A stretch of DNA of 51,682 nt from Thermodesulfobacteriota bacterium (GCA_039715055.1 JBDLID010000004.1:1-51682), one strand, 5' to 3'. Counted from the first letter of the stretch, positions 3,084 to 51,682 are shown. Notes: generated by a model from the letters alone, not told the origin. Numbers and translations: made by a program.

Positions 3084-3812
3084 TTGCTTCTATTGCGTGG
3101 TTGGACCATGGTGTTTAGAGTAAGATATCAAGTCAACCAACTCATCAACTCCCCCTGGAGACAATACGACATTATGGACATCAGTAAGTTTATTACAGAT
3201 CTGATCATCATTGCCCCCCCCCTGCTGCTCGCTCTCACCTTGCACGAGTTTGCCCACGGTTATGTTGCCTTCCGGCTTGGTGATCCAACCGCCAAGGCCA
3301 TGGGGCGCCTGACCTTAAACCCGCTTAAACACCTGGACCCGCTTGGGACCATCGCCTTTTTCTTTATCAAATTCGGCTGGGCCAAGCCGGTTCCGGTTAA
3401 TCCCAACTACTTTAAGGACCCCCAGAAAGGCATGCTCTGGGTCGCCCTGGCCGGGCCTGCGACCAATTTAGTGCTCGCTATCATCAGCGCCATCGGGGTC
3501 AAGCTGGTCTGGTTCATAGCAACAACCATCGGCTCCCCGACCCTCATCCAGACCGTCCTCCGCCCCCTTTACGACACCCTGGTTGCCAGTGTCTGGATCA
3601 ACCTGGTGCTCTGTATCTTCAATTTTCTGCCGATCCCTCCGCTGGACGGCAGCCGTATCCTGTCAGGACTGCTGCCGCCGGACATGGCAAGATCCTACAA
3701 CTCAATCGAACGCTACGGATTTATCATTATCCTGGTTCTTGCCTTCTCCGGTGTCCTCGGAAAACTCATTCTACCGGTGATCAGTTTCGCCACCAACATG
3801 CTGCTTGCCTGA
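3084..3812 (+). CDS. Site-2 protease family (peptidase M50) integral membrane zinc metalloprotease. The true start is probably the internal ATG near 3165 (MDISKF...).
   Basis: The HExxH motif (LHEFAHG) lies in a transmembrane context. A multi-pass hydrophobic profile and an LDG motif are typical of M50/S2P. Confidence 0.8.
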   Translation: MLLLRGWTMVFRVRYQVNQLINSPWRQYDIMDISKFITDLIIIAPPLLLALTLHEFAHGYVAFRLGDPTAKAMGRLTLNPLKHLDPLGTIAFFFIKFGWAKPVPVNPNYFKDPQKGMLWVALAGPATNLVLAIISAIGVKLVWFIATTIGSPTLIQTVLRPLYDTLVASVWINLVLCIFNFLPIPPLDGSRILSGLLPPDMARSYNSIERYGFIIILVLAFSGVLGKLILPVISFATNMLLA

Positions 3813-8444: not shown

Positions 8445-10217
8445 TCAGTCAGAGCTGTCTTGCTGTTCCAGGTTATTCTTTTTTCCCGAGGCATCATAAA
8501 GATACCGTTTGATCTTATGGGTAGCAGTCTTGATAAACGGTTCCCTCCGTTCATATAGTTGAGACAGGCGGGAGGCAGGAGGCAGCTGCTTGTTGACCTC
8601 TTTTTTCATATTCGCCAGCAGCTTTTCGATATAGGCATGCCGCTCGCTACGGTTCTGGCCGACGGTCTCCTCGTCGATCAATTCATAATCCGGGTAAACC
8701 CAGCCGTCGAGCCGACCGTTGTTCTCCACAACCAGTGATTCCACCACCCAGGCAAAGGCATTCATCTTGTGCTCAACCGGCTCAGGGTAGACATTTTCGC
8801 CGTTGGCCATAACGATCACATTTTTGGAGCGGCCACGAATATGGAGGTTGTTTTCTTCATCGAAATATCCGAGATCGCCGGTGAACAGCCAACCGTCTTC
8901 AGACAGCACCTCCTCGGTGGCTTCAGTGTCGTTCCAGTACCCCTGCATGACATTGGGACCACGTGCAGCAACCTCACCAACCCCGGTCTCGGGGTCCGGG
9001 TTCTTGATACGGATCTCAACATGGGGAATCGGCTTTCCGGTGGAACCAATGGCAATCGTCGGGTCTCCCGGAGGCCCACCTGCGAGCAGCGGTGCCGATT
9101 CCGTCATACCGTACCCGATGATATATGGAAAACCTGCAGCGTGAAGAAACTTCTCAACATCAGGGTTGAGTGCCGCACCACCAATTCCCATGAGCTGGAG
9201 GTTGCCACCGAAAAATTCGAGCAACTTGGCGCCGATTTTTTTGTAAATCATTTTTCTGCCGGCTTCGAACCGACAGACAGTGGACAGGACCAGGCTATTG
9301 TCGATTTTAGGCAGCACCCGTTTCTTGTAAATTTTTTCCATGACCAGCGGGACGGCAAACATGGCAAATGGTTTTTCTTCCTTGCACAACCTCTGAAGAA
9401 TTACCGGTGTGGGGGTCTTACCGGCATAGGCAATTCGAGCACCGGACAGCAGTGGCAGAATAAACCCGAGGGTAAACTCATAGGTGTGTGACATGGGCAG
9501 AATCGAGAGAAACACTGCCCCGGGTTCCACCTCAATCAATGACGAAGCCGAGTAGGCGTTGGCCGTCAAATTTTTATGGGTCAGCATCACCGCCTTGGAA
9601 AAACCGGAAGTGCCTGATGTATACAAAATAGCAGCGAGGTCCTCTTCATCGATCTCCTCGAAGCCGTACTCTTTTGACTCACCCAGTTTTTCATCACAGA
9701 GTTCATTGGCGCCATGGAGGTATTGTGAAAAGGGATCAACAAGGACAACACCTATGGTCCCCACATAATCATCAAGAGTGACCACCCGGGACAGGGTGTC
9801 ACGTTTGAGCTCATAGATTTTCTCAATCTGGCGCTGGGTGGTGAAGAGGAAAGAAACCTTCATCTCGGTAAGAATATGATGGACATCAGCTTCAGGAAGA
9901 TCAGGCAGAATGGGAACAACAATGGCACCGAGACGGACTATGGCAAAATAAGCCACTCCCCAGTTATGAGAATTCTCAGCAAGAATGGCAACGTGATCTC
10001 CTTTTTTGACTCCTTCATCAGTCAAACGGTAAGCAATTGCCATCACCCGGCCATAGAACTCACTATAGGTCAACGGGGTCTCCAACGCCATGCCTATGGC
10101 ATCACGATCTCCATAGAGATTTCGACTGTTGTCCAATATATAGTTCAGGGTCATCCGAACATCATCGTTACTTGACACTGGTAACCTCATTTTGGTGTGA
10201 ATCAAATCTACCTGCAA
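8445..10217 (-). CDS. AMP-dependent synthetase/ligase (long-chain acyl-CoA synthetase-like).
   Basis: The AMP-binding signature is LYTSGTSGFSKAVMLTHKNL. Length is 590 aa. It forms an operon with the FadL-like gene. Confidence 0.85.
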   Translation of the reverse strand: MQVDLIHTKMRLPVSSNDDVRMTLNYILDNSRNLYGDRDAIGMALETPLTYSEFYGRVMAIAYRLTDEGVKKGDHVAILAENSHNWGVAYFAIVRLGAIVVPILPDLPEADVHHILTEMKVSFLFTTQRQIEKIYELKRDTLSRVVTLDDYVGTIGVVLVDPFSQYLHGANELCDEKLGESKEYGFEEIDEEDLAAILYTSGTSGFSKAVMLTHKNLTANAYSASSLIEVEPGAVFLSILPMSHTYEFTLGFILPLLSGARIAYAGKTPTPVILQRLCKEEKPFAMFAVPLVMEKIYKKRVLPKIDNSLVLSTVCRFEAGRKMIYKKIGAKLLEFFGGNLQLMGIGGAALNPDVEKFLHAAGFPYIIGYGMTESAPLLAGGPPGDPTIAIGSTGKPIPHVEIRIKNPDPETGVGEVAARGPNVMQGYWNDTEATEEVLSEDGWLFTGDLGYFDEENNLHIRGRSKNVIVMANGENVYPEPVEHKMNAFAWVVESLVVENNGRLDGWVYPDYELIDEETVGQNRSERHAYIEKLLANMKKEVNKQLPPASRLSQLYERREPFIKTATHKIKRYLYDASGKKNNLEQQDSSD

Positions 10218-10740
10218 TCCGAATCAGAATTCGACAGCCGATACTAACTAATCGGGACCTTTAGGTCAACAATAAGGCCACCTTTAAAAATTGTCTTTTT
10301 GTCCCAACTCTTCGTTGCGCGAATAATTTTGTACCCGGAATATTAGAAGTGAGCCGAGCACTTCGTCCTCGGAATATCAGCTATATGCCTGTGGCAAAAT
10401 TCTCCTCACGCCTCGATTTGGAACAGATAAGCGAGGCACGAGACTCCGAAATACTAATTTTTCAAGGTACCCTATGAGACAGTTTTCAACTTGACCTAAA
10501 ATATGCGCTAATCCTAATAAAATCTTGACAATACGACCATTTCATAATACAAAATGTTAGAAATTGGTAAATGATTATTAATTAAATCTGCATCAGTATA
10601 GTCATTTTTCAATATTGATACATTAATTTATGCTTTGTTCCATACTCTATTATTTATTTGATATTACGAAATTCTTCACTAGTTATCCGGGACAGATTGC
10701 GAGAAAAACAACAGCTCAAGCTTAACCAGACATTTTTCTC

Positions 10741-11775
10741 ATGAATTATTTCCAGACATCAGTCAAATTGCTGTGCGGCCTTTTTATCAGTACTCTTTTT
10801 TTTCTGCCGTATTCAGTATCCGCCTCGATTCCAACACTGCAGGACTCCTTTAAAAGAGCTCCGCAGACAAAGAGTGCCTCCCGCGCTCCGCAAATCGTCA
10901 AAAAGACATCTTTGCCTGTTCTCGGCATTTATCGGGATATCTCTTTAAAAAGACGAGGCATCTCTCCTGCCACCAATAACAGTGACCGGAAAATAAAGCG
11001 GAAAATTTCTGCCAGAAGTGCCATCATCATTGACGCTGTCACTGGCAAGACCCTGTTCTCAAGGGCGCCTGACCGGCCACGACAGCCCGCTTCCACCATC
11101 AAGGTGATCACCGGTATGATCGCCATGAAGTCACTGTCGGAAACGGATAAGGTTGCTGTCAGTCCCAAGGCAGCCAGACAACCCCGATCAAAAATCTACC
11201 TCGATCATAAGAAAAACTATAAAGCCGCAGATCTCATCCAGGCGGTTCTTCTGGCTTCCGCAAATGATGCAAGTGTTGCCCTGGCTGAAAAAATTGCCGG
11301 CAATGAAAAAGAATTTGCTCAGATGATGACCCTGCGGGCCAGGCTGTGGGGTGCAAAAAATACCATCTGCCAGACAGCCTCCGGACTAACCGCCAAGGGA
11401 CAGCAAAGCACTGCAAGGGATCTGGCCACCATCTTCCGTCATGTCATGGCAGATGATGACTTTGCCGCCATTATGAAAAAGACCAAGGCCAGAACGACAA
11501 GAGGCAAACTGCTCCGCAATCACAACAAGGCTCTCTGGCAGATCAAGGGAGCAGAGGGCGGTAAGACCGGGTATACCAACAAGGCACGCCAGACCTATGT
11601 GGGCAAATTCAAGCGTGGTGGAAACGAGATTATCGTCGCAATCATGGGCAGTGAAACCATGTGGACCGACATCAAACGACTTGTGGAGTATGGTTTCACC
11701 CACAGCTTTGCCAACAACAGCGTTCCGGTTGACAATAAATCAGCCCAACCTGCTCAACTGATCGCCGGCCGTTAA
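10741..11775 (+). CDS. D-alanyl-D-alanine carboxypeptidase (serine peptidase S11, PBP5/DacC-like).
   Basis: A signal peptide is followed by the SxxK active-site motif (ASTIKVITGM) and an SAN-like motif (ASANDAS). Confidence 0.85.
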   Translation: MNYFQTSVKLLCGLFISTLFFLPYSVSASIPTLQDSFKRAPQTKSASRAPQIVKKTSLPVLGIYRDISLKRRGISPATNNSDRKIKRKISARSAIIIDAVTGKTLFSRAPDRPRQPASTIKVITGMIAMKSLSETDKVAVSPKAARQPRSKIYLDHKKNYKAADLIQAVLLASANDASVALAEKIAGNEKEFAQMMTLRARLWGAKNTICQTASGLTAKGQQSTARDLATIFRHVMADDDFAAIMKKTKARTTRGKLLRNHNKALWQIKGAEGGKTGYTNKARQTYVGKFKRGGNEIIVAIMGSETMWTDIKRLVEYGFTHSFANNSVPVDNKSAQPAQLIAGR

Positions 11776-11802
11776 TTCCCCTCCCTGCCAGCGTAATTGT
11801 CA

Positions 11803-11846
11803 ACAGTCTGTATACCTATTTCAACGGTATACAGACTGTTTTTATT
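11803..11846. terminator. Rho-independent terminator: ACAGTCTGTATACC / GGTATACAGACTGT hairpin followed by TTTTTAT.
   Basis: A perfect 14-bp inverted repeat plus a T-run. It sits between the convergent dacC-like and dnaE2 genes. Confidence 0.7.
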
Positions 11847-11887
11847 TCTGCCTCTCAACCTTGTCCCCATCTTTTAAAAAATTCGCT

Positions 11888-14884
11888 TCACGTCGTCCTG
11901 ACAAGACTCACCCTGTTCACCACCAGGCTGACTGCGCCAAAATCACGATCTATCGTCCCGTGCAGTACATACGGTCTGCCTGAGGACAGGAGATGGGCGT
12001 AACGCTGATATGTCCTTGGGAAAAAGGTGGTCTCCACCAGCCCGGTCTCATCCTCAAAGGTCAGGAACTCCATCACCTCGCCATTTTTGGTTGAAACCAG
12101 TTTGCCGGTGATCAGCCAACCGACAAAGCGCACTTTTTGACTGGTGTGATCCTCGAGATCGATTGCCCTGACCCGCCCTGCCAGGATACTTTCAGGCATC
12201 AGAGAGACCGGGTGACAGGAGGTGAGAAAACCCAGTATTGCATATTCCCTTCGCAGTCGCTCCCTGGTTACACCGTCTTTTAACTCTGGAGGAGGAGGCG
12301 CTGAAAAACCAAGCAGGGGTGTTGTCCGCTCCGCCGCTCTAGCACTATTGAGACGTGCGCACTCCCACAGCAGTTGACTGCGGCTCAAAGGTCCTGCCAC
12401 ACAATCCAGGGCACCGCTGTGGATCAGGGCCCGCACCTCGTCAGTCGACGGAGAGGTACGGACAAAAAAATCAGCCGGATTGCGATAAGCACCCTCCAGC
12501 CTGCAACTGATGACTCGCTCAACCAGACCGCGGGAAAGACCTTTGAGCGCCATCAGGCCGACCCGGACCACACTACCCTCGCCGCTCCATTTTCTGGTAC
12601 TTTCATTGACGCATGGAGGCACTATGGTCAAGCCGAGCCGCCTGGTCTCAGAGACATAGGCAAATGTGGAGTAGAAGCCACCCTCATTTGAAATCACCGC
12701 CGCCATGAACTGGGCCGGAAAATGGCACTTGAGATAGGCGGCCTGAAAAGAGACCTTTGCATAGGATGCCGAATGTGGCTTGCAGAATGAATAGCCGTCA
12801 AAGGAGAGGATCATCCGCCACAGATCCTCTATTACGCTTTGCTCGATCCCGTTTTGACGACAGCCTGAAAAAAATTCCTGCCGATAATCGGGCAGCCGCA
12901 TCTCCCGATCCTTTTTCGATAACACCTTGCGCAACCCGTCCGCCCGGGCGTGGGAAAAAGAGGCAAGGCGGACCGCCACCCGTGAAACATCCTCCTGGTA
13001 GACCATCAATCCGTAGGTCTCGTCCAGAACATCTGTCAGTAGAGGATGGAGCTGGTCATACCTGCCGCCATGGAGACGCCTGACATACTCCCTGACAAAT
13101 TCGTTGGCAGCCGGCCTGATGATCGATGACTGGATGACAAGCTGCTCAAAGTCACCCACCGCCGCCTTTTTCTGGAGAAGCCGCATGGCCGGGCTCTCGA
13201 TATAAAAGCAGCCCATGGTCAGCCCGTTGGCCACCGTCACCCTGGTGGCCGGATCATCTTCCGGCTGCCAGTTTGTCTCGTCAAATTCAACCCCACAGCC
13301 ACGCACAGCTCCAAGTCCGTCCCGGATGACACCCAGGCTGCGGTTGCCGAGCAGGTCGATCTTCACCAGCCCCGCCTCCTCGGTGCCATCCTTTTCCCAG
13401 TGAATGATGGGAACGCCCTTGGCGGCCCGCTCCACCGGTACATAGTGGTTGATCGGCTGCGGCGTGATGACCACGCCGCCCGGATGGACGGAGAGGTAAC
13501 GCGGAACTCCGACCAGTTGCTCCGCCTGTTTAAAAATTGACGGCCACGGTGGCGACAGGTCGATGCCCCGCATGGTCGGCAGGTGGGCCACGCTTGCCGC
13601 CATACTTGTACCATGACCACGATACCATGGCAGCCGCTTGGTCACCGTTGATATCTCCAGGGATGACAACCCATGGGCCCGGGCGGTTTCACGGATGGCC
13701 ATTTTCGGCTGAAAGCAGACGTGGTTGGCGACCATGGCGATGTGACCATTGAAATCATGAAGGACCTCGGCCAGAACATGGTCACGCTCGTCCCAGGAAA
13801 AATCGATATCGATGTCCGGCGGATCACTGCGGCCCGGATTTAAAAAACGCTCAAAATAGAGATTGTGTTTTACCGGGCAGACGTTTGTGATTTCCAGGCA
13901 GTAGGCAACAAGAGAGGCCGCACCTGAGCCGCGGCCGCAGATCCGCCTTTTTTTTCGCACACCGTTTGTTCCCAGGCGGTGGACGATATCACGCACCACC
14001 AAAAAATAGGAGGCGAATGCCATTTTACAGATCACCTTCAACTCGTGCTCCAGGCGTTCCACCACCGGTTCGGCCAGATCCTCTCCGTAGCGGTTGACCG
14101 CCCCCTCATAGGCCTTGCGACGCAGGACGGTGCCACTCTCTCCACGACCGCGCCAGGGCGGCATGATAATCCCAAAATCCGGGCCGCGGAATCGACAACG
14201 CGCTGCAAGCAGTTCACTGTTTTTCAAAACTTCAGGCCAGATTGCAAAACGGTCCGCATAAACATCAGGGTGCTCCAGATACTTCGCAGTGCAGTTGCTG
14301 CTTCGGCTCCTGATTTGCGACAGGCTTTTTTTCTCATCAATGGCCCGCAGCAGTTGAAACAGCTGCTGCTCATCCGGACCACCAAGGACTGCGGCCGGTG
14401 TACAGAGCGATGCGATCCTCCTGGACCGTGCCCAACTGCGCAGTCTCGATGCCCTTGCGTCCGGCTGCGCCCCGAGGTCCGCCGAAACCGACAGACCAGC
14501 CCGCTGCAGCCCCGCAAGAACTGTTCTGTTATCGCTTAAAAACAGAAGTCCCTCACCGTGGTCAGCGCACTCCCGGACGAGTTCAAAATCCGTATCCAGA
14601 TGCTTCCCTGTTAACAGCTGACAGAGGTTTTTATAGCCCTTCTCATTTTCAACCAGAGCGGTGAGCCGATGCCCGCCGTCGTCATCTATGTCCGCACCGA
14701 TAACCGGTCGCAGCCCCTCTTTTTTGCAGGCCGCAAGAAATGACCAGAGTCCGTAGAGGTTGTTCAGGTCGGTCAGGGCCAAACCGCTGTAGCCAGCCTT
14801 TTTTGCCAGGCGGCACAGTTTTGCCGGAGAGGCGGTGCCCTGCATCAGTGAATAGTGGGAACGGAGCCGCAGGGGGAAAAACAT
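11888..14884 (-). CDS. dnaE2: Error-prone DNA polymerase DnaE2 (ImuC), a Pol III alpha-like protein with a PHP domain.
   Basis: The 998-aa ORF has a PHP N-terminus (RSHYSLMQGTASPAKLCRLAKKAGYSGLALTDLNNLYG). Its start is coupled to the imuB stop by a 4-bp overlap. Confidence 0.9.
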   Translation of the reverse strand: MFFPLRLRSHYSLMQGTASPAKLCRLAKKAGYSGLALTDLNNLYGLWSFLAACKKEGLRPVIGADIDDDGGHRLTALVENEKGYKNLCQLLTGKHLDTDFELVRECADHGEGLLFLSDNRTVLAGLQRAGLSVSADLGAQPDARASRLRSWARSRRIASLCTPAAVLGGPDEQQLFQLLRAIDEKKSLSQIRSRSSNCTAKYLEHPDVYADRFAIWPEVLKNSELLAARCRFRGPDFGIIMPPWRGRGESGTVLRRKAYEGAVNRYGEDLAEPVVERLEHELKVICKMAFASYFLVVRDIVHRLGTNGVRKKRRICGRGSGAASLVAYCLEITNVCPVKHNLYFERFLNPGRSDPPDIDIDFSWDERDHVLAEVLHDFNGHIAMVANHVCFQPKMAIRETARAHGLSSLEISTVTKRLPWYRGHGTSMAASVAHLPTMRGIDLSPPWPSIFKQAEQLVGVPRYLSVHPGGVVITPQPINHYVPVERAAKGVPIIHWEKDGTEEAGLVKIDLLGNRSLGVIRDGLGAVRGCGVEFDETNWQPEDDPATRVTVANGLTMGCFYIESPAMRLLQKKAAVGDFEQLVIQSSIIRPAANEFVREYVRRLHGGRYDQLHPLLTDVLDETYGLMVYQEDVSRVAVRLASFSHARADGLRKVLSKKDREMRLPDYRQEFFSGCRQNGIEQSVIEDLWRMILSFDGYSFCKPHSASYAKVSFQAAYLKCHFPAQFMAAVISNEGGFYSTFAYVSETRRLGLTIVPPCVNESTRKWSGEGSVVRVGLMALKGLSRGLVERVISCRLEGAYRNPADFFVRTSPSTDEVRALIHSGALDCVAGPLSRSQLLWECARLNSARAAERTTPLLGFSAPPPPELKDGVTRERLRREYAILGFLTSCHPVSLMPESILAGRVRAIDLEDHTSQKVRFVGWLITGKLVSTKNGEVMEFLTFEDETGLVETTFFPRTYQRYAHLLSSGRPYVLHGTIDRDFGAVSLVVNRVSLVRTT

Positions 14885-14886
14885 TT

Positions 14887-16074
14887 TCAGGCCGAACTGT
14901 CAGCACATTTTCCCGGACCAAACCACACAGCATCGTGACCAAAACGGCTGCGAACCCGGTCCATGGCAGCAAACAGCTTCTCCTCCCGGAGCTGCCTCGG
15001 GTTTTTTGTGCAGAAGAGGGAAAGCTGGGGAGAGACCTTTTGCAAACGGTCGGCGATGAGTCTGCAGCTGCGCAGACGGCTGCGCATACTCCAGGCCCGG
15101 AGCAAGGCGTCAAAGGCCATTTTTTCGATCTCAACATCCCTGCTGCTCCCCTGTCGACCTGAGCTTCCTCCTGTACTGCGACGACCATCACTGTGATGAA
15201 GTTCAACCATAACCCGTCGGCATTCAAGCTGCCTTGAACGCAACTTGCGACAGAGACGCCCGGCGAGGCCTCTCAAACAGATACGGACAAGCTCGTGATC
15301 TCCACAGTCGTCATCAAACAGGTGCTCAAAAAAGATCTTTGCAGCCGACTCATTTTCAGCATGCACCTGACAACTGTCTATGCCGCGGCTGACCTGATGG
15401 AGAAATTCTCCGCCCTTGCCGAAGATAACCATGAGCTGCTGGGGGCTCAGACTTGCCAGTTCACCGACCCGGCTCAGATTGAACTCCGCCATCCGCCCCT
15501 GCTGGTGACGGCTCACTCCGGGAAGAATGGTAAGCGGCAGAGGAGCCAGAAATGCACTCTCTTCCCCCGGACCGACAATATATTCGCCCAGCGGCTTAAC
15601 CAGACGGGAGGCCACTTTTGAAACCAGCTTGGAAGTCGCCACCGTCCAGATCGGCCGGATTCCCAGGCGGTTGCCAAGCTGTTTACGCAGCCGCCAGGCA
15701 ATATCCGGCGGGGGACCAAACAGACGATGGGTGCCGGTCACATCGACAAAAAGATGACCATCGAGCAGCCCCTGCTCGATCTTTGGAGAAAAACTGCTCA
15801 CCTCGGAGACGAGGCCCTGCATGGCACGCCGGTAAAGAAGAGGCTGCGGCGGCAGGACTGCTGCACGGCGGCAGAGCCGTCTTGCCCGGCTGAGGCGCAT
15901 TCCTTTACGAACGCCGTCCTGGTATGCCTCTTCACTCATGTCATAGACCGAGGCCCGGCCGCCGGCTCCGGCAGCGATAAGAAGGGGGCGACTGCGCAGC
16001 GAGGTGTCTTCAAGGCGCTCTACGGCAACAGCAAAGTCAGCCACATTCAAGTGGATAATGGCACGTTCCAGCAT
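14887..16074 (-). CDS. imuB: ImuB-type Y-family DNA polymerase homolog (UmuC/DinB-like, mutagenesis cassette). The start was set at the internal ATG (MLERAIIHLNVADFAVAVE).
   Basis: The Y-family N-terminus follows the IxHxDxDxFFAxVE pattern. The longer ORF running to 16251 passes through a structured inverted repeat and has no match to the family N-terminus, so it was rejected. Confidence 0.75.
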   Translation of the reverse strand: MLERAIIHLNVADFAVAVERLEDTSLRSRPLLIAAGAGGRASVYDMSEEAYQDGVRKGMRLSRARRLCRRAAVLPPQPLLYRRAMQGLVSEVSSFSPKIEQGLLDGHLFVDVTGTHRLFGPPPDIAWRLRKQLGNRLGIRPIWTVATSKLVSKVASRLVKPLGEYIVGPGEESAFLAPLPLTILPGVSRHQQGRMAEFNLSRVGELASLSPQQLMVIFGKGGEFLHQVSRGIDSCQVHAENESAAKIFFEHLFDDDCGDHELVRICLRGLAGRLCRKLRSRQLECRRVMVELHHSDGRRSTGGSSGRQGSSRDVEIEKMAFDALLRAWSMRSRLRSCRLIADRLQKVSPQLSLFCTKNPRQLREEKLFAAMDRVRSRFGHDAVWFGPGKCADSSA

Positions 16075-16176
16075 GGTAGAAGGGTAAATACAATTCAGAA
16101 TCTGATTACGTATAAAGTGTCGCCACCTCTTGCCATTGAATAACAAGCAGTTAAGGCTGACATTCTGGCCCGGAGT

Positions 16177-16273
16177 GATAGATGTTTGATTTGCGGGACG
16201 CCATAAACCCATCCATAGGGGCTTGATCGCAGCCGTCCGGGCTGTGATCAAGCCCCCAAATCAAACATCTATC
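16177..16273. repeat. Nested long inverted repeat. The outer arms are a 17-bp perfect match (GATAGATGTTTGATTTG / CAAATCAAACATCTATC). The inner arms are an 11-bp perfect match (GGGGCTTGATC / GATCAAGCCCC).
   Basis: Read directly from the sequence in the 290-bp gap between the DUF72 stop and the imuB start. Confidence 0.6.
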
Positions 16274-16366
16274 CTCCCTACTCTGTCGAAAAAATTAATC
16301 CTGTATTCAATTATTAAATACCATGACTGAGTTTGGTGGGTAATCACCGTCCCATCCGGACGCTGC

Positions 16367-17230
16367 TCAACCGGCGGCGAGCAGCTGCCCGAACAGCCTG
16401 GCGTTTCTCGGTGCCTGGGCCCGGACATGATTGTTGAAAAATACCGCTCCGCTTGAGGCCCTGCTGCAGATAACCGACATATGGTCGCGCAACCAGCTCT
16501 TCAGCTCCTCTTCACTGTAGTCGTAGTCGAATTTCTGCTGCATATTGGCCGATCGCCAGCCCCTTTCATTGCGGCCATGAAAGCGGATATAAAAAAGGTC
16601 GGGATTGGTCACCACATCAAGCAGGGGAAAAAGACCGGGCAGTTGCGGAGCGTCAACGGTCACCAGGGTGACTCCTCGTTTCTCAAGCTCGGCAAAAACA
16701 GAATCCCGGGCCCAGGAACGATGACGAAATTCAACGGCCAGCGGCAGCCCGGCCAACCCGTCGAGCAGCCTGGCCAGATAGCTGCGCCTGGAGTGAGTCC
16801 AGTCAAAATCAGGAGGAAGCTGAATGAGGATGGCCAGTAAACGGTTCTTCAACGGAGCGATTCCCTGGCGATAAGAGCGCAGCTGTTCGGGCCACCCGGC
16901 ATCGACTTCATGGGTCAGGGTTCGGGTCAGCTTGGCGGCAAAACAGAAGTGGTCCGGAGCTCTGCTGACCATCCGCTCCACAGCCTCGGCCCTGACCATC
17001 TGGTACCAGGTATAGTTAAGCTCCACCACTGAAAATTTTTGACCATAGAGCGGCAGCATGTCAGGGGTTTTGGTCAGTGATGGATAAAAACCGCCGTCCA
17101 CCCACTCCGTATAGGAATAACCGCTGGTTCCGATCCGCACCCTGCTCTCCTGTGCAGAAGAGTGGTTTTGGACCATATGGACCTGCGGCAACGGATCCGT
17201 CTGCTGTTTCATAACCTCTTTGCTGCTCAC
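16367..17230 (-). CDS. DUF72 (YecE-like) family protein. It is translationally coupled to lexA through a GTGA overlap. An alternative internal ATG start is possible.
   Basis: The conserved DUF72 N-terminus is RIGTSGYSY, and the family-typical length is about 270 aa. Its start codon overlaps the lexA stop. Confidence 0.75.
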   Translation of the reverse strand: MSSKEVMKQQTDPLPQVHMVQNHSSAQESRVRIGTSGYSYTEWVDGGFYPSLTKTPDMLPLYGQKFSVVELNYTWYQMVRAEAVERMVSRAPDHFCFAAKLTRTLTHEVDAGWPEQLRSYRQGIAPLKNRLLAILIQLPPDFDWTHSRRSYLARLLDGLAGLPLAVEFRHRSWARDSVFAELEKRGVTLVTVDAPQLPGLFPLLDVVTNPDLFYIRFHGRNERGWRSANMQQKFDYDYSEEELKSWLRDHMSVICSRASSGAVFFNNHVRAQAPRNARLFGQLLAAG

Positions 17231-17841
17231 ATCTGTCCACGGATGACGCCGACCACCTTACCCTGGACCAGCAGCTCGCCGAACCCATAACGTTTTGCGT
17301 CGAACTCCTTGTTTTCAGGGCGAAGCTCAATACAGTCGTCATGGCGAAAAAACCGCTTCACAGTTGCCTCTTCACCGTGGAGAAGGGCCACTACAACCTC
17401 CCCGTTTTCCGCATACTGACGTGGTTCACACACCACAAAATCGCGGTCGAGAATCCCGGCGTCACGCATGGATTGTCCATCCACCCGGAGACAGAAAAGA
17501 TTGTCACCGGGAAACATTGCAGCGTCAACCCACACCGATCCATCCCACTCCTGCTGAGCATACATGGGCAGACCGGCGGTAATCTGCCCGATTACCGGCA
17601 GCTCACGACCGGCCCCACTTTTTTTCTCAGGTGGAGAACCGGACAGCAGGCGGATGGTGCGACTGTAATGACCGGCCCGCTCGAGATAGCCTTTTTTTTC
17701 AAGCTGACCAATAAACTGGGCCACCGCAGAATGGCTTATTCCCAGATCCAATGCGGCTTGACGCAGGCTTGGAGCCCGGCCCTGGTTGTCTAAACATTCT
17801 TTGAGGTAATCGAGAAAGGCGCTTTGTTTGGTGGTCAGCAT
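17227..17841 (-). CDS. lexA: LexA repressor: winged-helix N-terminus plus an S24 autopeptidase C-terminus.
   Basis: The 204-aa ORF has an HTH in the N-terminal region. The C-terminal S24 domain shows Ser/Lys dyad context (VDGQSMRDAGI...VVALLHGEEATVKRF). Confidence 0.9.
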   Translation of the reverse strand: MLTTKQSAFLDYLKECLDNQGRAPSLRQAALDLGISHSAVAQFIGQLEKKGYLERAGHYSRTIRLLSGSPPEKKSGAGRELPVIGQITAGLPMYAQQEWDGSVWVDAAMFPGDNLFCLRVDGQSMRDAGILDRDFVVCEPRQYAENGEVVVALLHGEEATVKRFFRHDDCIELRPENKEFDAKRYGFGELLVQGKVVGVIRGQM

Positions 17842-17847
17842 GAGAGA

Positions 17848-17992
17848 AGGGTGTAGGGTTCAGGGTATAAGGTTTAGGGTATAAGGTTTAGGGTATAAAA
17901 GCAGGGTGCAGGGTTTAAGGTATAGGGTTTAAGGTTTAAGGGCTAAGGGTATAAGACGGGGTGCAGGGTTGAAGGTACAGGGTTTAAGGATT
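17848..17992. repeat. Degenerate tandem array of ~7/14-bp G-tract repeats (GGTTTAGGGTATAA and variants) containing the telomere-like TTTAGGG. Thirteen GGG tracts occur on the + strand, which is the lexA template strand.
   Basis: Read directly from the sequence. Exact tandem 14-mers occur at 17871-17884 and 17885-17898. The array begins 7 bp upstream of the lexA ATG. Confidence 0.8.
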
Positions 17993-18004
17993 AAAAATCA
18001 CCAA

Positions 18005-18042
18005 TGTACATATACATTATCTTGACAATGGGGAAATGTCAA
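18005..18042 (-). promoter_or_regulatory. Candidate lexA promoter on the - strand: TTGACA (18042-18037), a 17-nt spacer, then TAATGT (18019-18014). The palindrome TGTACATATACA (18006-18017) overlaps the -10 and is a candidate SOS operator.
   Basis: Hexamer matches and the TGTA-N4-TACA dyad were read from the sequence. The position is consistent with autoregulation. No validated LexA-box consensus exists for this lineage. Confidence 0.3.
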
Positions 18043-18084
18043 TACACTTTGTCTGGCTGTTACCCTCACTCCTGGCCCGCTGGA

Positions 18085-18122
18085 CAAAAAAAGGGGGAAA
18101 CCGGAAATACCGGCTTCCCCCC
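18085..18122 (-). terminator. Rho-independent terminator for the DUF1566 gene: GGGGGAAGCCGG / CCGGTTTCCCCC hairpin with one mismatch, followed by a U7 run on the - strand.
   Basis: Inverted repeat at 18093-18104 and 18110-18121. An A-run at 18085-18092 gives the T-run on the - strand. Confidence 0.6.
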
Positions 18123-18150
18123 TGGTTGGAAGTTTAGATGGATGTAACTG

Positions 18151-19095
18151 CTACTCGATGGTTCGGCAGAGACGACCGAAACCTCCGGGAATGGTGCCTG
18201 ATGACCAGAACGATCTTCCCTGCTTGTAATCAACAAACCAGTAGCCACCGGGCTTTCGTTTGGCGGCCACAAAGATGAACGGCTGTTCCTTGGAAAAACA
18301 GTTGTCGAGATAAAGGCCTTTAGGGTTGCGCTCCCTTTCCATGAGCGACATGGCCTCTTCCAGCGTTGGCAGGCGCCATTTGTCGTGCCCACCATATCCT
18401 TCTTTGCCGTCGATCTGCTCAATAACGCGCTGCATACTGCGGATTGAATTGATGTCCAGGCCGCCCCGCTGCCACATGAGGCCGGTACGAAGATCAGTGA
18501 CTGTTAACCCGTCATCATTGTCAACCAGATGATTACCAAAGTCACCTTCCGGGTTGAGTTCGGCGTCAAAAAAATTCCACTTTTTGATCACCGCCTCGGC
18601 CTCTTCATCGGTAAACAGGTCGAATTCAGATGGAAATACTACCTGCTCCCCCTCAAACGTTGAGCTGCCGGCCTTGGGCAGATCTCCCATGTACTCCTGC
18701 TCAGCCTGACTCTCTTTTAAAGGAACCACAAAAGCATTATCCTTGGCTTCCACGACATTGCTCTTCAGCCATTGCTTGAGAGCATCGTCAATGGCGTAAC
18801 TTCGCTCAAAAAATGAGGAACTGCCCTGGCTGCGGACACATTCCTTCACCATATCGACTGGGGCCTCAATCTCAGCTACAACCTTGGCGTGCTTGACCCC
18901 TCGCTCCATGAGACATAACTTGGGTACTTCTCCCCAGTTATCGATAAAAAAATAAAGAATCCGCTCGCTGTTATTTCGAACCCTCTCTCTGCCCCCCCAT
19001 GATTCGTAAGTACCGAAAGTCATGTCGGGAGTCATCTCCCAGTCAATTGTTTTTATTGTATCATTTCCAATATCCAGATTCTTGAACATACCCAT
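18151..19095 (-). CDS. Hypothetical protein with a C-terminal DUF1566 (Lcl-like) domain. The N-terminal ~190 aa are unrecognised.
   Basis: The C-terminal motif TGLMWQRGGLD...WRLPTLEEAMSL is typical of DUF1566. There is no signal peptide. Confidence 0.55.
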   Translation of the reverse strand: MGMFKNLDIGNDTIKTIDWEMTPDMTFGTYESWGGRERVRNNSERILYFFIDNWGEVPKLCLMERGVKHAKVVAEIEAPVDMVKECVRSQGSSSFFERSYAIDDALKQWLKSNVVEAKDNAFVVPLKESQAEQEYMGDLPKAGSSTFEGEQVVFPSEFDLFTDEEAEAVIKKWNFFDAELNPEGDFGNHLVDNDDGLTVTDLRTGLMWQRGGLDINSIRSMQRVIEQIDGKEGYGGHDKWRLPTLEEAMSLMERERNPKGLYLDNCFSKEQPFIFVAAKRKPGGYWFVDYKQGRSFWSSGTIPGGFGRLCRTIE

Positions 19096-50854: not shown

Positions 50855-51682
50855 TCAAAGAGTCTCAAAAACCTTGCGCCTGGCCTCGGCCGATCGTTTC
50901 AGGGCCGATACCGAATCATCAACATAGTCAAAAACCCTGGCCTCCTTACCCTTTGCCGGACGCATAATCCGGCCGATTATCTGCAGCAGTCGCCCCTCAA
51001 AGGTGATGGGGGTGGTGAGAAAAAGACAGGTCAACCCCGGGCAGTCAAAGCCCTCGCCAATCAGCTGCAGGGTGGCGACGAGTACGCTGATCCTTCCCTC
51101 ACGCACATCGTCTACAACCTGGCTCCTCTTTTCCGCCGGAGTCTGACCGGTGAGCATGGCCACTTTAACACCCCTGTTCAACAGCAGCCGTTCAAAGAGC
51201 TCACAGTGAGTCACCCGATCTGAAACAACAAGCGATACCCCACCTTCCTTTTCACCGGCAACCGCAGCCACGTCGCCTACGATCTGGACATTACGTCCCT
51301 CGTCTTTTGTCAGGGCGGTGATGAGCGCCTGATAATCTCCCCTGTAACGGTAGCTGAACGCGGTCATTTTTCTGAAAAATTTCGGTTTGACAATTGCCCC
51401 GCTTTCAGCAAGTTCCAGCTTGTCCACCTGATGAATGCGGTCTCCCATGAAATAATAAATAAGACGGGTGGTCTGGTCATCGCTGCGAAAGGCGGTGGCG
51501 GAAAGGCCGAGCATGTAATAACAGTCGAAACGGCTCACCACATCGGTAAACAGACTTGCCGGAACACGGTGACACTCATCCACTACCAGGTGACCGAAGT
51601 GATCTTTCAACTCGTCCACCCGTTTCCTGGCACTGTTGACAATGGCCACGGTCACCGGCTCGATTGTAAAATGGCCATCTCC
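50855..51682 (-). CDS. Superfamily-2 DEAD/DEAH-box helicase (type III restriction res-subunit-like / RadD-like), C-terminal part. The gene continues beyond the window end.
   Basis: Motif II is DExH (VVDECHR), motif III is SAT (GLSATAF), and helicase C-terminal motifs include QIIGRIMR. The reading frame is open to the window edge. Confidence 0.75.
   Translation of the reverse strand, partial: GDGHFTIEPVTVAIVNSARKRVDELKDHFGHLVVDECHRVPASLFTDVVSRFDCYYMLGLSATAFRSDDQTTRLIYYFMGDRIHQVDKLELAESGAIVKPKFFRKMTAFSYRYRGDYQALITALTKDEGRNVQIVGDVAAVAGEKEGGVSLVVSDRVTHCELFERLLLNRGVKVAMLTGQTPAEKRSQVVDDVREGRISVLVATLQLIGEGFDCPGLTCLFLTTPITFEGRLLQIIGRIMRPAKGKEARVFDYVDDSVSALKRSAEARRKVFETL

Follow-up and report, generated by a model that had tools for sequence, protein, structure and literature searches.

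A DUF72/YecE-family protein is a conserved member of a lexA-headed iPolY-DnaE2B gene cluster in Desulfobulbales

Introduction

The canonical DnaE2 cassette, lexA-imuA-imuB-dnaE2, is known from Pseudomonas putida, Caulobacter and Mycobacterium. It is controlled by LexA, whose own gene comes first, and combines the RecA-like protein ImuA, encoded in the second slot, with a dead Y-family scaffold (ImuB) and the error-prone polymerase DnaE2. A different type of cassette is the iPolY-DnaE2B-RecA module (Timinskas & Venclovas 2019, PMC6511836; NAR 2026, PMC12926913), in which an inactive Y-family polymerase (iPolY) of about 395 amino acids (aa) lacks the ImuB-C domain, carries a C-terminal RecA-NT motif and is encoded directly upstream of DnaE2B, often together with lexA. 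This class occurs in genomes without imuA or imuB, and RecA has been proposed to bind the RecA-NT motif (PMC6511836, PMC12926913). AlphaFold models of the iPolY-DnaE2-RecA complex have been published for other species (PMC12926913). Here we describe a locus of the second type on a contig of 51,682 bp (JBDLID010000004.1) from a metagenome-assembled genome (MAG) of a Thermodesulfobacteriota bacterium, whose closest relatives are Desulfocapsaceae and Desulfobulbales; the whole contig is referred to as the window throughout. Between lexA and the polymerase genes, this locus carries a gene for a protein of the DUF72/YecE family.

DUF72/YecE is a very large and ancient family with members in E. coli, Bacillus, Thermotoga and archaea. 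Three crystal structures have been available since 2004 (PDB 1vpq, 1vpy and 1ztv), and to our knowledge no function of the family has been established experimentally. The view that its members act as DNA-repair endonucleases goes back to computational proposals only (PMC3828134, PMC4939058). In the searchable literature, a fixed DUF72 component of DnaE2 cassettes appears to be undescribed, and YecE and SOS were found together there only in connection with prophage insertion sites.

Results

Gene content and class of the polymerase genes

The locus consists of four co-directional genes on the minus strand of the window in the order lexA, DUF72, iPolY and dnaE2. A sequence-only reading of the same DNA had described it as a non-canonical SOS cassette without imuA, in which a DUF72 gene is coupled to lexA and an imuB-dnaE2 pair follows. 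The four genes are real, and each of them is supported by domain matches. The premise of a canonical cassette that lacks imuA had to be given up, as the cassette is of a different and already catalogued type.

The first gene, lexA (17227-17841), encodes a protein of 204 aa with a winged helix-turn-helix and an S24 autopeptidase domain. It matches TIGR00498 with an E-value of 1.4e-49 (168.4 bits, equivalog cutoff 110.95), and PF01726 and PF00717 are both matched as well. An Ala-Gly site (ITA/GLP), a serine in DGQSMRD and a lysine in ATVKRF (TVKRF) are all present in the translation, which we take, by comparison with E. coli LexA, to be the cleavage site and the Ser/Lys dyad.

The DUF72 gene (16367-17230) encodes 287 aa if translation starts at a GTG codon, or 281 aa from the ATG codon at 17212. 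The assignment to DUF72/YecE and the RIGTSGYSY motif of the sequence-only reading hold, with a match to PF01904 above the gathering score (E 8e-57) and the motif present in the translation. The proposed GTGA overlap with lexA is correct as far as the geometry of the open reading frames (ORFs) is concerned, but the start of DUF72 is ambiguous and the public annotation of the same contig (protein P0001, 281 aa) uses the ATG codon 18 nt downstream. The coupling between lexA and DUF72 is tight with either start (-4 or +15 nt), and in the nearest relative (L050) the two genes share an unambiguous ATGA overlap.

For the Y-family gene (14887-16074), the start corresponds to M60 of the ORF at position 16074. 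The resulting protein of 395 aa is identical in extent to the deposited protein P0121, with homologues of 387-434 aa, and therefore has no ImuB-C extension. It comprises IMS, IMS_C and IMS_HHH_1 domains; no ImuB-C domain was detected in it. The catalytic carboxylates are lost, since IIHLNVADF takes the place of IIHVDMDCF in DinB and LLDGHL that of SLDEAY, so that D8, D10 and E104 of DinB align to N, A and G, respectively. A clamp-binding pentapeptide, QLSLF, is followed by a C-terminal RecA-NT-like motif, EKLFAAMDRVRSRFGHDAVWFG. This region (...AMDRVRSRFG..AV..G) aligns to the reference motif, with Q350, L353, F354, D372 and G379 invariant, and the protein ends 10 residues past it, whereas the ImuB proteins of Burkholderiaceae extend to 460-491 aa.

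Reference iPolY sequences were taken from the supplement of PMC12926913. The best full-length match of the window protein is Citrifermentans bremense BCG45748 (32% identity over 389 aa, E 5e-57 to 1e-56), and Nitrospira japonica SLM47932 is 31% identical (E 5e-52). The scDinB2-like and Bacteroidetes PolY2 groups matched more weakly than the gbDinB2-like group, and BLASTP against two Burkholderiaceae ImuB proteins returned nothing at E<1e-3. The naming of this gene as imuB is therefore not upheld: it has neither an ImuB-C domain nor a match to ImuB nor an ImuA partner, and resembles the gbDinB2-like proteins instead.

The fourth gene, dnaE2 (11888-14884), encodes a DnaE2B-like error-prone C-family polymerase of 998 aa with PHP, DNA_pol3_alpha, finger, HHH_6 and OB domains and with the catalytic motif PDIDIDF. 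The overlap by ATGA that had been reported for its junction with the Y-family gene is absent; the junction reads TGA-AA-ATG and is a spacer of 2 nt. The model NF004225 ('error-prone DNA polymerase') is matched with 537 bits, below its cutoff of 939 bits. Over its N-terminal 400 aa, the protein gives one contiguous alignment to N. japonica DnaE2B (38%, 248 bits), whereas the same 400 aa align to two ImuA-associated Burkholderiaceae DnaE2A proteins in fragments only, with about 100 bits. As judged by these pairwise alignments, the polymerase pair belongs to the gbDinB2-like group of the iPolY-DnaE2B-RecA class.

No homologue of ImuA or RecA was found among the ORFs or six-frame matches of the window, and no imuA in about 119 related loci, in agreement with the sequence-only reading. 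Lack of ImuA characterizes the iPolY-DnaE2B class as a whole and is not a loss in need of compensation. Compared to the canonical cassettes, the present one shares the LexA-type control predicted below, a dead Y-family scaffold with DnaE2 and lexA as the first gene. It differs in that ImuA and ImuB-C are missing, DnaE2 is of group B and not of group A, and the second slot is occupied by a triosephosphate isomerase (TIM)-barrel protein, presumably an enzyme, and not by a RecA-like protein. The difference from the iPolY-DnaE2B-RecA module lies in DUF72, which published descriptions do not list and which about 95% of the Desulfobulbales loci have between lexA and iPolY. Thus, the polymerase module is of a known type and the membership of DUF72 is the new part.

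Conservation of the four-gene order

To survey the neighbourhood of DUF72 in related bacteria, the DUF72 protein was used to scan 185,579 species-representative genomes (GTDB), yielding 39 loci. An iPolY-centred metagenome scan, with a deliberately diverse alignment including Geobacter- and Nitrospira-type sequences as query, yielded 80 further loci, which are the closest relatives (45-64% identity). Dereplication at 97% nucleotide identity reduced these 39 + 80 loci to 107 clusters (Desulfobulbales). DUF72 and iPolY are adjacent in 94 clusters, i.e. in 94 of the 101 informative ones; the two genes are split by an insertion in 2 clusters, DUF72 is absent from 3, iPolY is absent from 2, and 6 clusters end at a contig edge. 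The gene order thus recurs in about 95% of the informative related loci. Directly upstream of DUF72, lexA is found in 82 of 84 informative clusters, so that the adjacency of the two genes is conserved. Identity to the window proteins goes down to 54% for DUF72 and 44% for iPolY, and the junctions between the genes in the relatives are mostly 0-20 nt long or overlapping.

The same cassette is also present outside this order, on the mobilizable 136-kb MOBQ plasmid Do28_1 of Desulfosarcina ovata (NZ_AP021877.1, 59962-65737), where it adjoins genes for a TraA relaxase and an IS200/IS605 transposase. In RefSeq, its iPolY is labelled 'hypothetical protein' and its DnaE2 'DNA polymerase III subunit alpha'. 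When plasmids were searched by tblastn with iPolY, the cassette was found solely on this Desulfosarcina plasmid.

In a Desulfobulbaceae MAG (L032) and in Desulfogranum japonicum DSM 18378 (L033), opposite-strand trkA/trkH genes lie between DUF72 and iPolY (8800-12500). Despite this split, lexA and DUF72 stay together. Within 60 nt of its start codon, the separated iPolY-dnaE2 unit is preceded by repeated TGTACA/TTTACATT motifs of its own, as would be expected if both halves need the same repressor. One contig of the collection, binned as 'Christensenellales bacterium' (L029, JBMNTQ010000160.1), is essentially identical to the Desulfobulbaceae/Desulfobulbus contigs L030, L031 and L036 and is probably mis-binned.

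Promoter and putative operator of lexA

Upstream of lexA, a -35 element TTGACA (18042-18037) is located inside a degenerate operator-like box, AAAGTGTATTGACATT (18035-18050, minus strand), for which the relatives have AATGTACATTGACATT; the upstream regions of more than 25 related lexA genes share a conserved ATGTACATTGACATT. A perfect 16-bp palindrome, AATGTATATGTACATT (18003-18018), overlaps the -10 region and is the putative LexA operator. No other site in the window matches AATGTA-N4-TACATT without a mismatch. Both elements, the TTGACA in AATGTACATTGACATT and the second palindrome AATGTA-N4-TACATT, are common to most of 33 related lexA upstream regions, in which the palindrome lies just after or over the -10 element, downstream of -35 and upstream of lexA. 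From this conservation, LexA is predicted to bind the palindrome. The -10 element of the lexA promoter is non-consensus, and the promoter therefore escaped a search of 11700-18300 for consensus promoters and terminators.

In the relatives, the operator box is 10-25 nt away from the lexA start codon, a well-placed GGAGG is present and the leader has no heptad array. The window differs in that an array of heptad repeats (147 bp) separates the operator from the lexA start codon. This G-poor, degenerate tandem repeat (17848-17994, minus strand; periods of 7/14/55 nt, ACCYTNN heptads, Tandem Repeats Finder score 187) has removed the Shine-Dalgarno sequence of lexA. The 39 genome-derived loci and the rest of the window contain no other copies of it. 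From its sequence and distribution, we regard the leader repeat as a lineage-private insertion that lies outside the conserved design of the operon. A similar ACCCTGA/GAACCNT heptad array stands immediately before the iPolY start codon in one relative (L095).

A second association of DUF72 with a DnaE2 cassette

Furthermore, 72,556 plasmids were searched by tblastn with the DUF72 protein of the window, followed by a homologue search seeded with Burkholderiaceae DUF72 and by inspection of the gene context. On Paraburkholderia acidisoli p1 and Paraburkholderia sp. D15 pla, DUF72 is the last gene of an operon imuA-imuB-(error-prone polymerase)-DUF72 with a gap between dnaE2 and DUF72 of 11-20 nt, and the same four genes, imuA-imuB-dnaE2-DUF72, are present on the chromosome of Trinickia violacea. 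Across the Burkholderiaceae operons this gap is 11-28 nt. In each of them, imuA is preceded at a distance of 33-118 nt by a perfect LexA box of the E. coli type, CTGT-N8-ACAG. As in the window, where the LexA operator is putative, DUF72 is associated with a DnaE2 cassette under a LexA box. The operons differ from that of the window by a canonical ImuA and an ImuB-C domain, by the position of DUF72, which is last and not second, by the lineage of DUF72 and by the type of operator. The DUF72 proteins of these operons are only 28.5% identical to that of the window and 63-81% identical to standalone DUF72 proteins of Burkholderiaceae; therefore, the two recruitments of DUF72 are independent. No zero-mismatch LexA boxes were found upstream of the standalone Burkholderiaceae genes, and DUF72 is thus not a general member of the SOS regulon in this family.

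Several loci show either the polymerases without DUF72 or DUF72 without the polymerases. In two close relatives of the window (L085 and L125), lexA directly abuts iPolY-dnaE2 and DUF72 is missing; a third locus (L084) has neither lexA nor DUF72. In Desulfocapsa sp. MC-01 (L019, JAFLJO010000053.1, about 3230-3290), lexA survives only as its final ~16 codons (LVQGKVKGVIRSYDSR*) and iPolY and dnaE2 are gone, but DUF72 is intact and the Lcl_C gene known from the window still lies upstream. We read this locus as a cassette that has decayed in situ with DUF72 retained. The chromosome of Caballeronia sp. LjRoot34 (L135, 5866-7909) has a perfect LexA box, CTGTACAAATATACAG, followed by imuA, an ORF of 72 codons and DUF72, with imuB and dnaE2 missing; judging by its remnants, it represents another decayed cassette that keeps DUF72.

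On other plasmids, DUF72 is also found near a DNA ligase gene together with an imuA remnant, or near Ku. A gene of the 'phosphoadenosine phosphosulfate reductase family' directly precedes DUF72 on Paraburkholderia aromaticivorans pBN4 (L045), and on a Rhodanobacter plasmid (L042) DUF72 lies about 3.6 kb downstream of such a gene; both plasmids have runs of small hypothetical genes. This context is possibly related to DNA modification or phage. In three plasmids, DUF72 is followed by small hypothetical genes that lack Pfam matches and show no homology among themselves, and the neighbours of DUF72 in a Spirochaete locus (L038) are uninformative.

Properties of the DUF72 protein

As had been expected in the sequence-only reading, DUF72 is a TIM barrel: the predicted model of the protein and the homologous crystal structures (1vpq, 1vpy) agree on a (beta/alpha)8 fold. 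The protein has an invariant polar constellation resembling an active site. Its fold is not that of RecA, and tblastn revealed no similarity of DUF72 to five ImuA proteins. Modelling of the Thermotoga protein TM1631 has suggested a DNA groove, a wedge of two aromatic residues and a phosphate site (N44, Y47, Y48, K72, H79, Q114, R145; PMC3828134). These modelled interface residues align to N66, W69, Y70, K94, H101, Q131 and R163 of the window protein, all of which are invariant in 38 orthologues.

The DNA-repair nucleases Endonuclease IV and UVDE (UV-damage endonuclease) share with DUF72 the same broad fold and acidic and histidine residues at the C-terminal mouth of the barrel, and a damage-response context is plausible; DUF72 differs from both in having no sequence-profile membership in either family. 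The fold by itself does not prove nuclease activity.

For the PolB2-iRadA-PPB2 system, the part of a published study dealing with operon neighbourhoods reports that DUF72 is enriched 'to some degree', together with lexA, near PolB2 (PMC11791011). Like the loci described here, these are damage-inducible operons of translesion polymerases, with lexA (in bacteria) and DUF72 enriched nearby. The polymerase is of family B and not of family C or Y, and in that part of the study the association is a neighbourhood enrichment and not a fixed position in an operon. Taken with that account, DUF72 is attached to three kinds of damage-inducible polymerase operons, namely those of DnaE2B and ImuABC (both described here) and of PolB2 (PMC11791011). 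For the DUF72/YecE/TM1631 family, membership in an SOS operon is a new context.

Boundaries of the operon and neighbouring genes

Upstream of lexA lies a gene for an Lcl_C-domain protein (18151-19095). Its intrinsic terminator (18091-18123, minus strand; a 14-pair stem with 9 GC pairs, then TTTTTGT) marks the 5' boundary of the operon. At the other end, a perfect 15-bp hairpin (AACAGTCTGTATACC / GGTATACAGACTGTT, 11802-11840) sits between the convergent genes dnaE2 and D-Ala-D-Ala carboxypeptidase (peptidase S11). Its T-run is confined to the plus strand, and it probably terminates both genes and forms the 3' boundary. The flanks are made up of unrelated housekeeping genes, encoding the Lcl_C protein, ketopantoate reductase, a NUDIX protein, the D-Ala-D-Ala carboxypeptidase, an acyl-CoA synthetase and FadL. 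No Rfam family reached its gathering threshold in the whole window. At 50855-51655, on the minus strand toward the contig end and 33 kb from the cassette, the C-terminal region of a partial SF2 helicase matches RadD, XPB and a Dnd-associated restriction enzyme weakly and has no evident link to the cassette.

Discussion

From the gene content, the conservation of the genes and of the operator, the polymerase class and the independent recruitment of DUF72, all directly observed, we infer that lexA-DUF72-iPolY-dnaE2 is a LexA-autoregulated SOS operon in which DUF72 is a conserved accessory enzyme, most likely acting on damaged DNA. We consider this reading of the locus probable. LexA binding, co-transcription, the partnership with RecA and the biochemical activity of DUF72 are its predicted parts. 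DNA damage would activate RecA and lead to self-cleavage of LexA, by which the promoter (TTGACA, with the palindrome over -10) would be freed, and the four tightly packed genes would then be transcribed together. The dead gbDinB2-like iPolY would serve as a scaffold through its beta-clamp motif QLSLF and its RecA-NT motif and would be paired with the active DnaE2, with RecA itself in the place held by ImuA in canonical cassettes. DUF72 would be an accessory enzyme of the operon and neither a subunit of the mutasome nor a substitute for ImuA. It may be an endonuclease specific for lesions or structures, or may clean DNA ends; the xylose-isomerase-like TIM-barrel superfamily to which it would belong also includes Endonuclease IV and UVDE. 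Nicks and gaps for filling by DnaE2 could be made or trimmed by such an enzyme. In non-replicating Caulobacter cells, the substrate of DnaE2 is provided by excision-generated gaps (PMC8102061), which gives a rationale for an incision or end-processing enzyme in the same operon.

An unrecognised SOS-regulated function of DUF72, one of two explanations put forward in the sequence-only reading, is supported by this context, i.e. by the adjacency to lexA in 82 of 84 clusters, by the conserved promoter and operator and by the independent recruitment in another phylum. The chances of a DNA-processing role of DUF72 are about even or somewhat lower on the contextual evidence described above, and those of an endonuclease role in particular are lower. 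More tentative is the generalization that DUF72/YecE may be an unrecognised family of damage-response DNA-processing proteins that has repeatedly been wired into inducible error-prone polymerase operons (DnaE2B-iPolY, ImuABC, PolB2).

A number of observations speak against this interpretation of the locus. Outside the two lineages, most of the sampled DUF72 genes stand alone, have unrelated neighbours and lack a LexA box. Part of the conservation within Desulfocapsaceae is retained chromosomal synteny. SOS induction and LexA control of the operon are predicted from the conservation of the operator. Since lexA of the window has no Shine-Dalgarno sequence and a structured spacer of 292 bp precedes iPolY, co-expression of the genes in this organism is less certain than in its relatives. 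With respect to the activity of DUF72, the active-site metal is absent from the three DUF72 crystal structures (PMC3828134), and two DUF72 proteins gave no profile match to UvdE (PF03851) or AP_endonuc_2 (PF01261) even at E<=10.

The last two points would also fit a DUF72 protein that is SOS-induced without being a DNA endonuclease and that instead takes part in the chemistry of damaged sugars, nucleotides or abasic sites, as an isomerase, lyase or hydrolase, or in some other stress task. The closest folds outside the family, MbnB and sugar epimerases/isomerases, point in the same direction. This explanation, which we consider unlikely although it is the strongest of the alternatives, has to account for the recruitment of DUF72 into three kinds of damage-inducible polymerase operons and not to other SOS genes (for PolB2 as far as the neighbourhood data of PMC11791011 extend), for DNA ligase, Ku and imuA as its neighbours on plasmids and for the invariance of the DNA-interface residues modelled in TM1631.

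A further alternative concerns the spacer between DUF72 and iPolY (16075-16366), for which the sequence-only reading had described a structured gap of about 290 bp with a nested inverted repeat. The spacer is 292 bp long, and the repeat arms are present at about 16173-16277, the outer ones of 21 nt at 16177-16197 / 16253-16273 and the inner ones of 17 nt at 16218-16234 / 16240-16256. The repeat could be a dedicated regulatory element (an attenuator, an RNase III site or a protein-binding site) that divides the operon into an early lexA-DUF72 and a late iPolY-dnaE2 part. Its very stable predicted RNA fold (z-score -5.2) would be in line with such a role, as would its position exactly where other genomes split the operon and the presence of long hairpins at this junction in other loci: about 20% of the relatives have inserts of 140-560 nt there with long imperfect hairpins. 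However, the sequences of these inserts are mutually unrelated, the repeat of the window is unique to this contig, with no relatives of the spacer in the 39 genome-derived loci or elsewhere in the window, and most relatives have a junction of 0-20 nt. In addition, the spacer contains no U-tract, no promoter-like or operator-like site and no Rfam match. None of the long DUF72-iPolY spacers has an operator-like TGTA-N4-6-TACA site, so that an internal SOS promoter is not supported. The pattern looks more like recurrent insertion of palindromic elements or of elements resembling miniature inverted-repeat transposable elements (MITEs) at a tolerant junction, which suggests a hotspot for such insertions. 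No further copies exist in the window and the 39 loci, so that these data give no grounds for calling the inverted repeat mobile. A dedicated regulatory element is therefore improbable, slightly more so than the preceding alternative. The nested inverted repeat is private to the lineage and lies outside the conserved design; it may have a local effect on mRNA processing, and together with the heptad leader it may modulate the stoichiometry of the two operon halves. Hairpin inserts were seen in the loci L013, L066, L080, L095, L104/L112 and L107 in addition to the window; in L082 and L109, other short tandem repeats flank the hairpins of the spacer. The spacers between iPolY and dnaE2 also vary, up to about 730 nt.

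Less likely again is that the adjacency merely reflects inherited synteny or hitch-hiking, with DUF72 as a housekeeping gene that landed downstream of lexA in an ancestor of the Desulfobulbales. The large size of the DUF72 family with its mostly standalone genes would agree with this, as does the conservation of the flanks (Lcl_C, peptidase S11, AMP-binding) in 16-30 loci within Desulfocapsaceae. The four-gene order is, however, kept where the flanks differ, in Desulfobulbaceae loci and many metagenome loci, and on the plasmid of another order; the junctions are short or overlapping, lexA and DUF72 remain together when the operon is split, and DUF72 was recruited a second time in Betaproteobacteria under a different LexA box.

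Finally, the lineage-specific replacement of ImuA by DUF72 proposed in the sequence-only reading, in which DUF72 would be a structural or regulatory subunit binding the Y-family scaffold and DnaE2, may be suggested by the slot of DUF72 between lexA and the Y-family gene, which is that of imuA in the canonical cassette, by its tight coupling to lexA and by the missing imuA, but is very improbable, as DUF72 coexists with a bona fide ImuA at the opposite operon end in Burkholderiaceae, is dispensed with in L085 and L125, outlasts the polymerases in L019 and L135 and has a TIM-barrel and not a RecA fold, while iPolY has a RecA-NT motif of its own and its class lacks ImuA genome-wide (PMC12926913).

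Conclusion

Overall, the analysis presented here corrects the tempting reading of DUF72 as a stand-in for ImuA. Across an order of bacteria that reduce sulfate or cycle sulfur, the gene has a fixed place in a polymerase operon that starts with lexA. The cassette adds to the known variants of DnaE2 mutasomes, which are of relevance for mutagenesis under stress and for the way resistance evolves, and it can be carried by a mobilizable plasmid. The vague notion of DUF72 as a possible repair endonuclease is turned into a specific hypothesis that is genetically testable in culturable hosts of such cassettes, namely Paraburkholderia, Trinickia violacea, Desulfosarcina ovata and Desulfogranum japonicum. 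If the more tentative generalization to the whole family is true, DUF72 proteins would cut DNA at specific lesions or structures, with or without the help of a metal, or would clean 3' ends, and each such operon would encode a self-contained 'incise, then resynthesise mutagenically' pathway that is independent of UvrABC. The findings tie the large orphan family DUF72 to the bacterial DNA-damage response.

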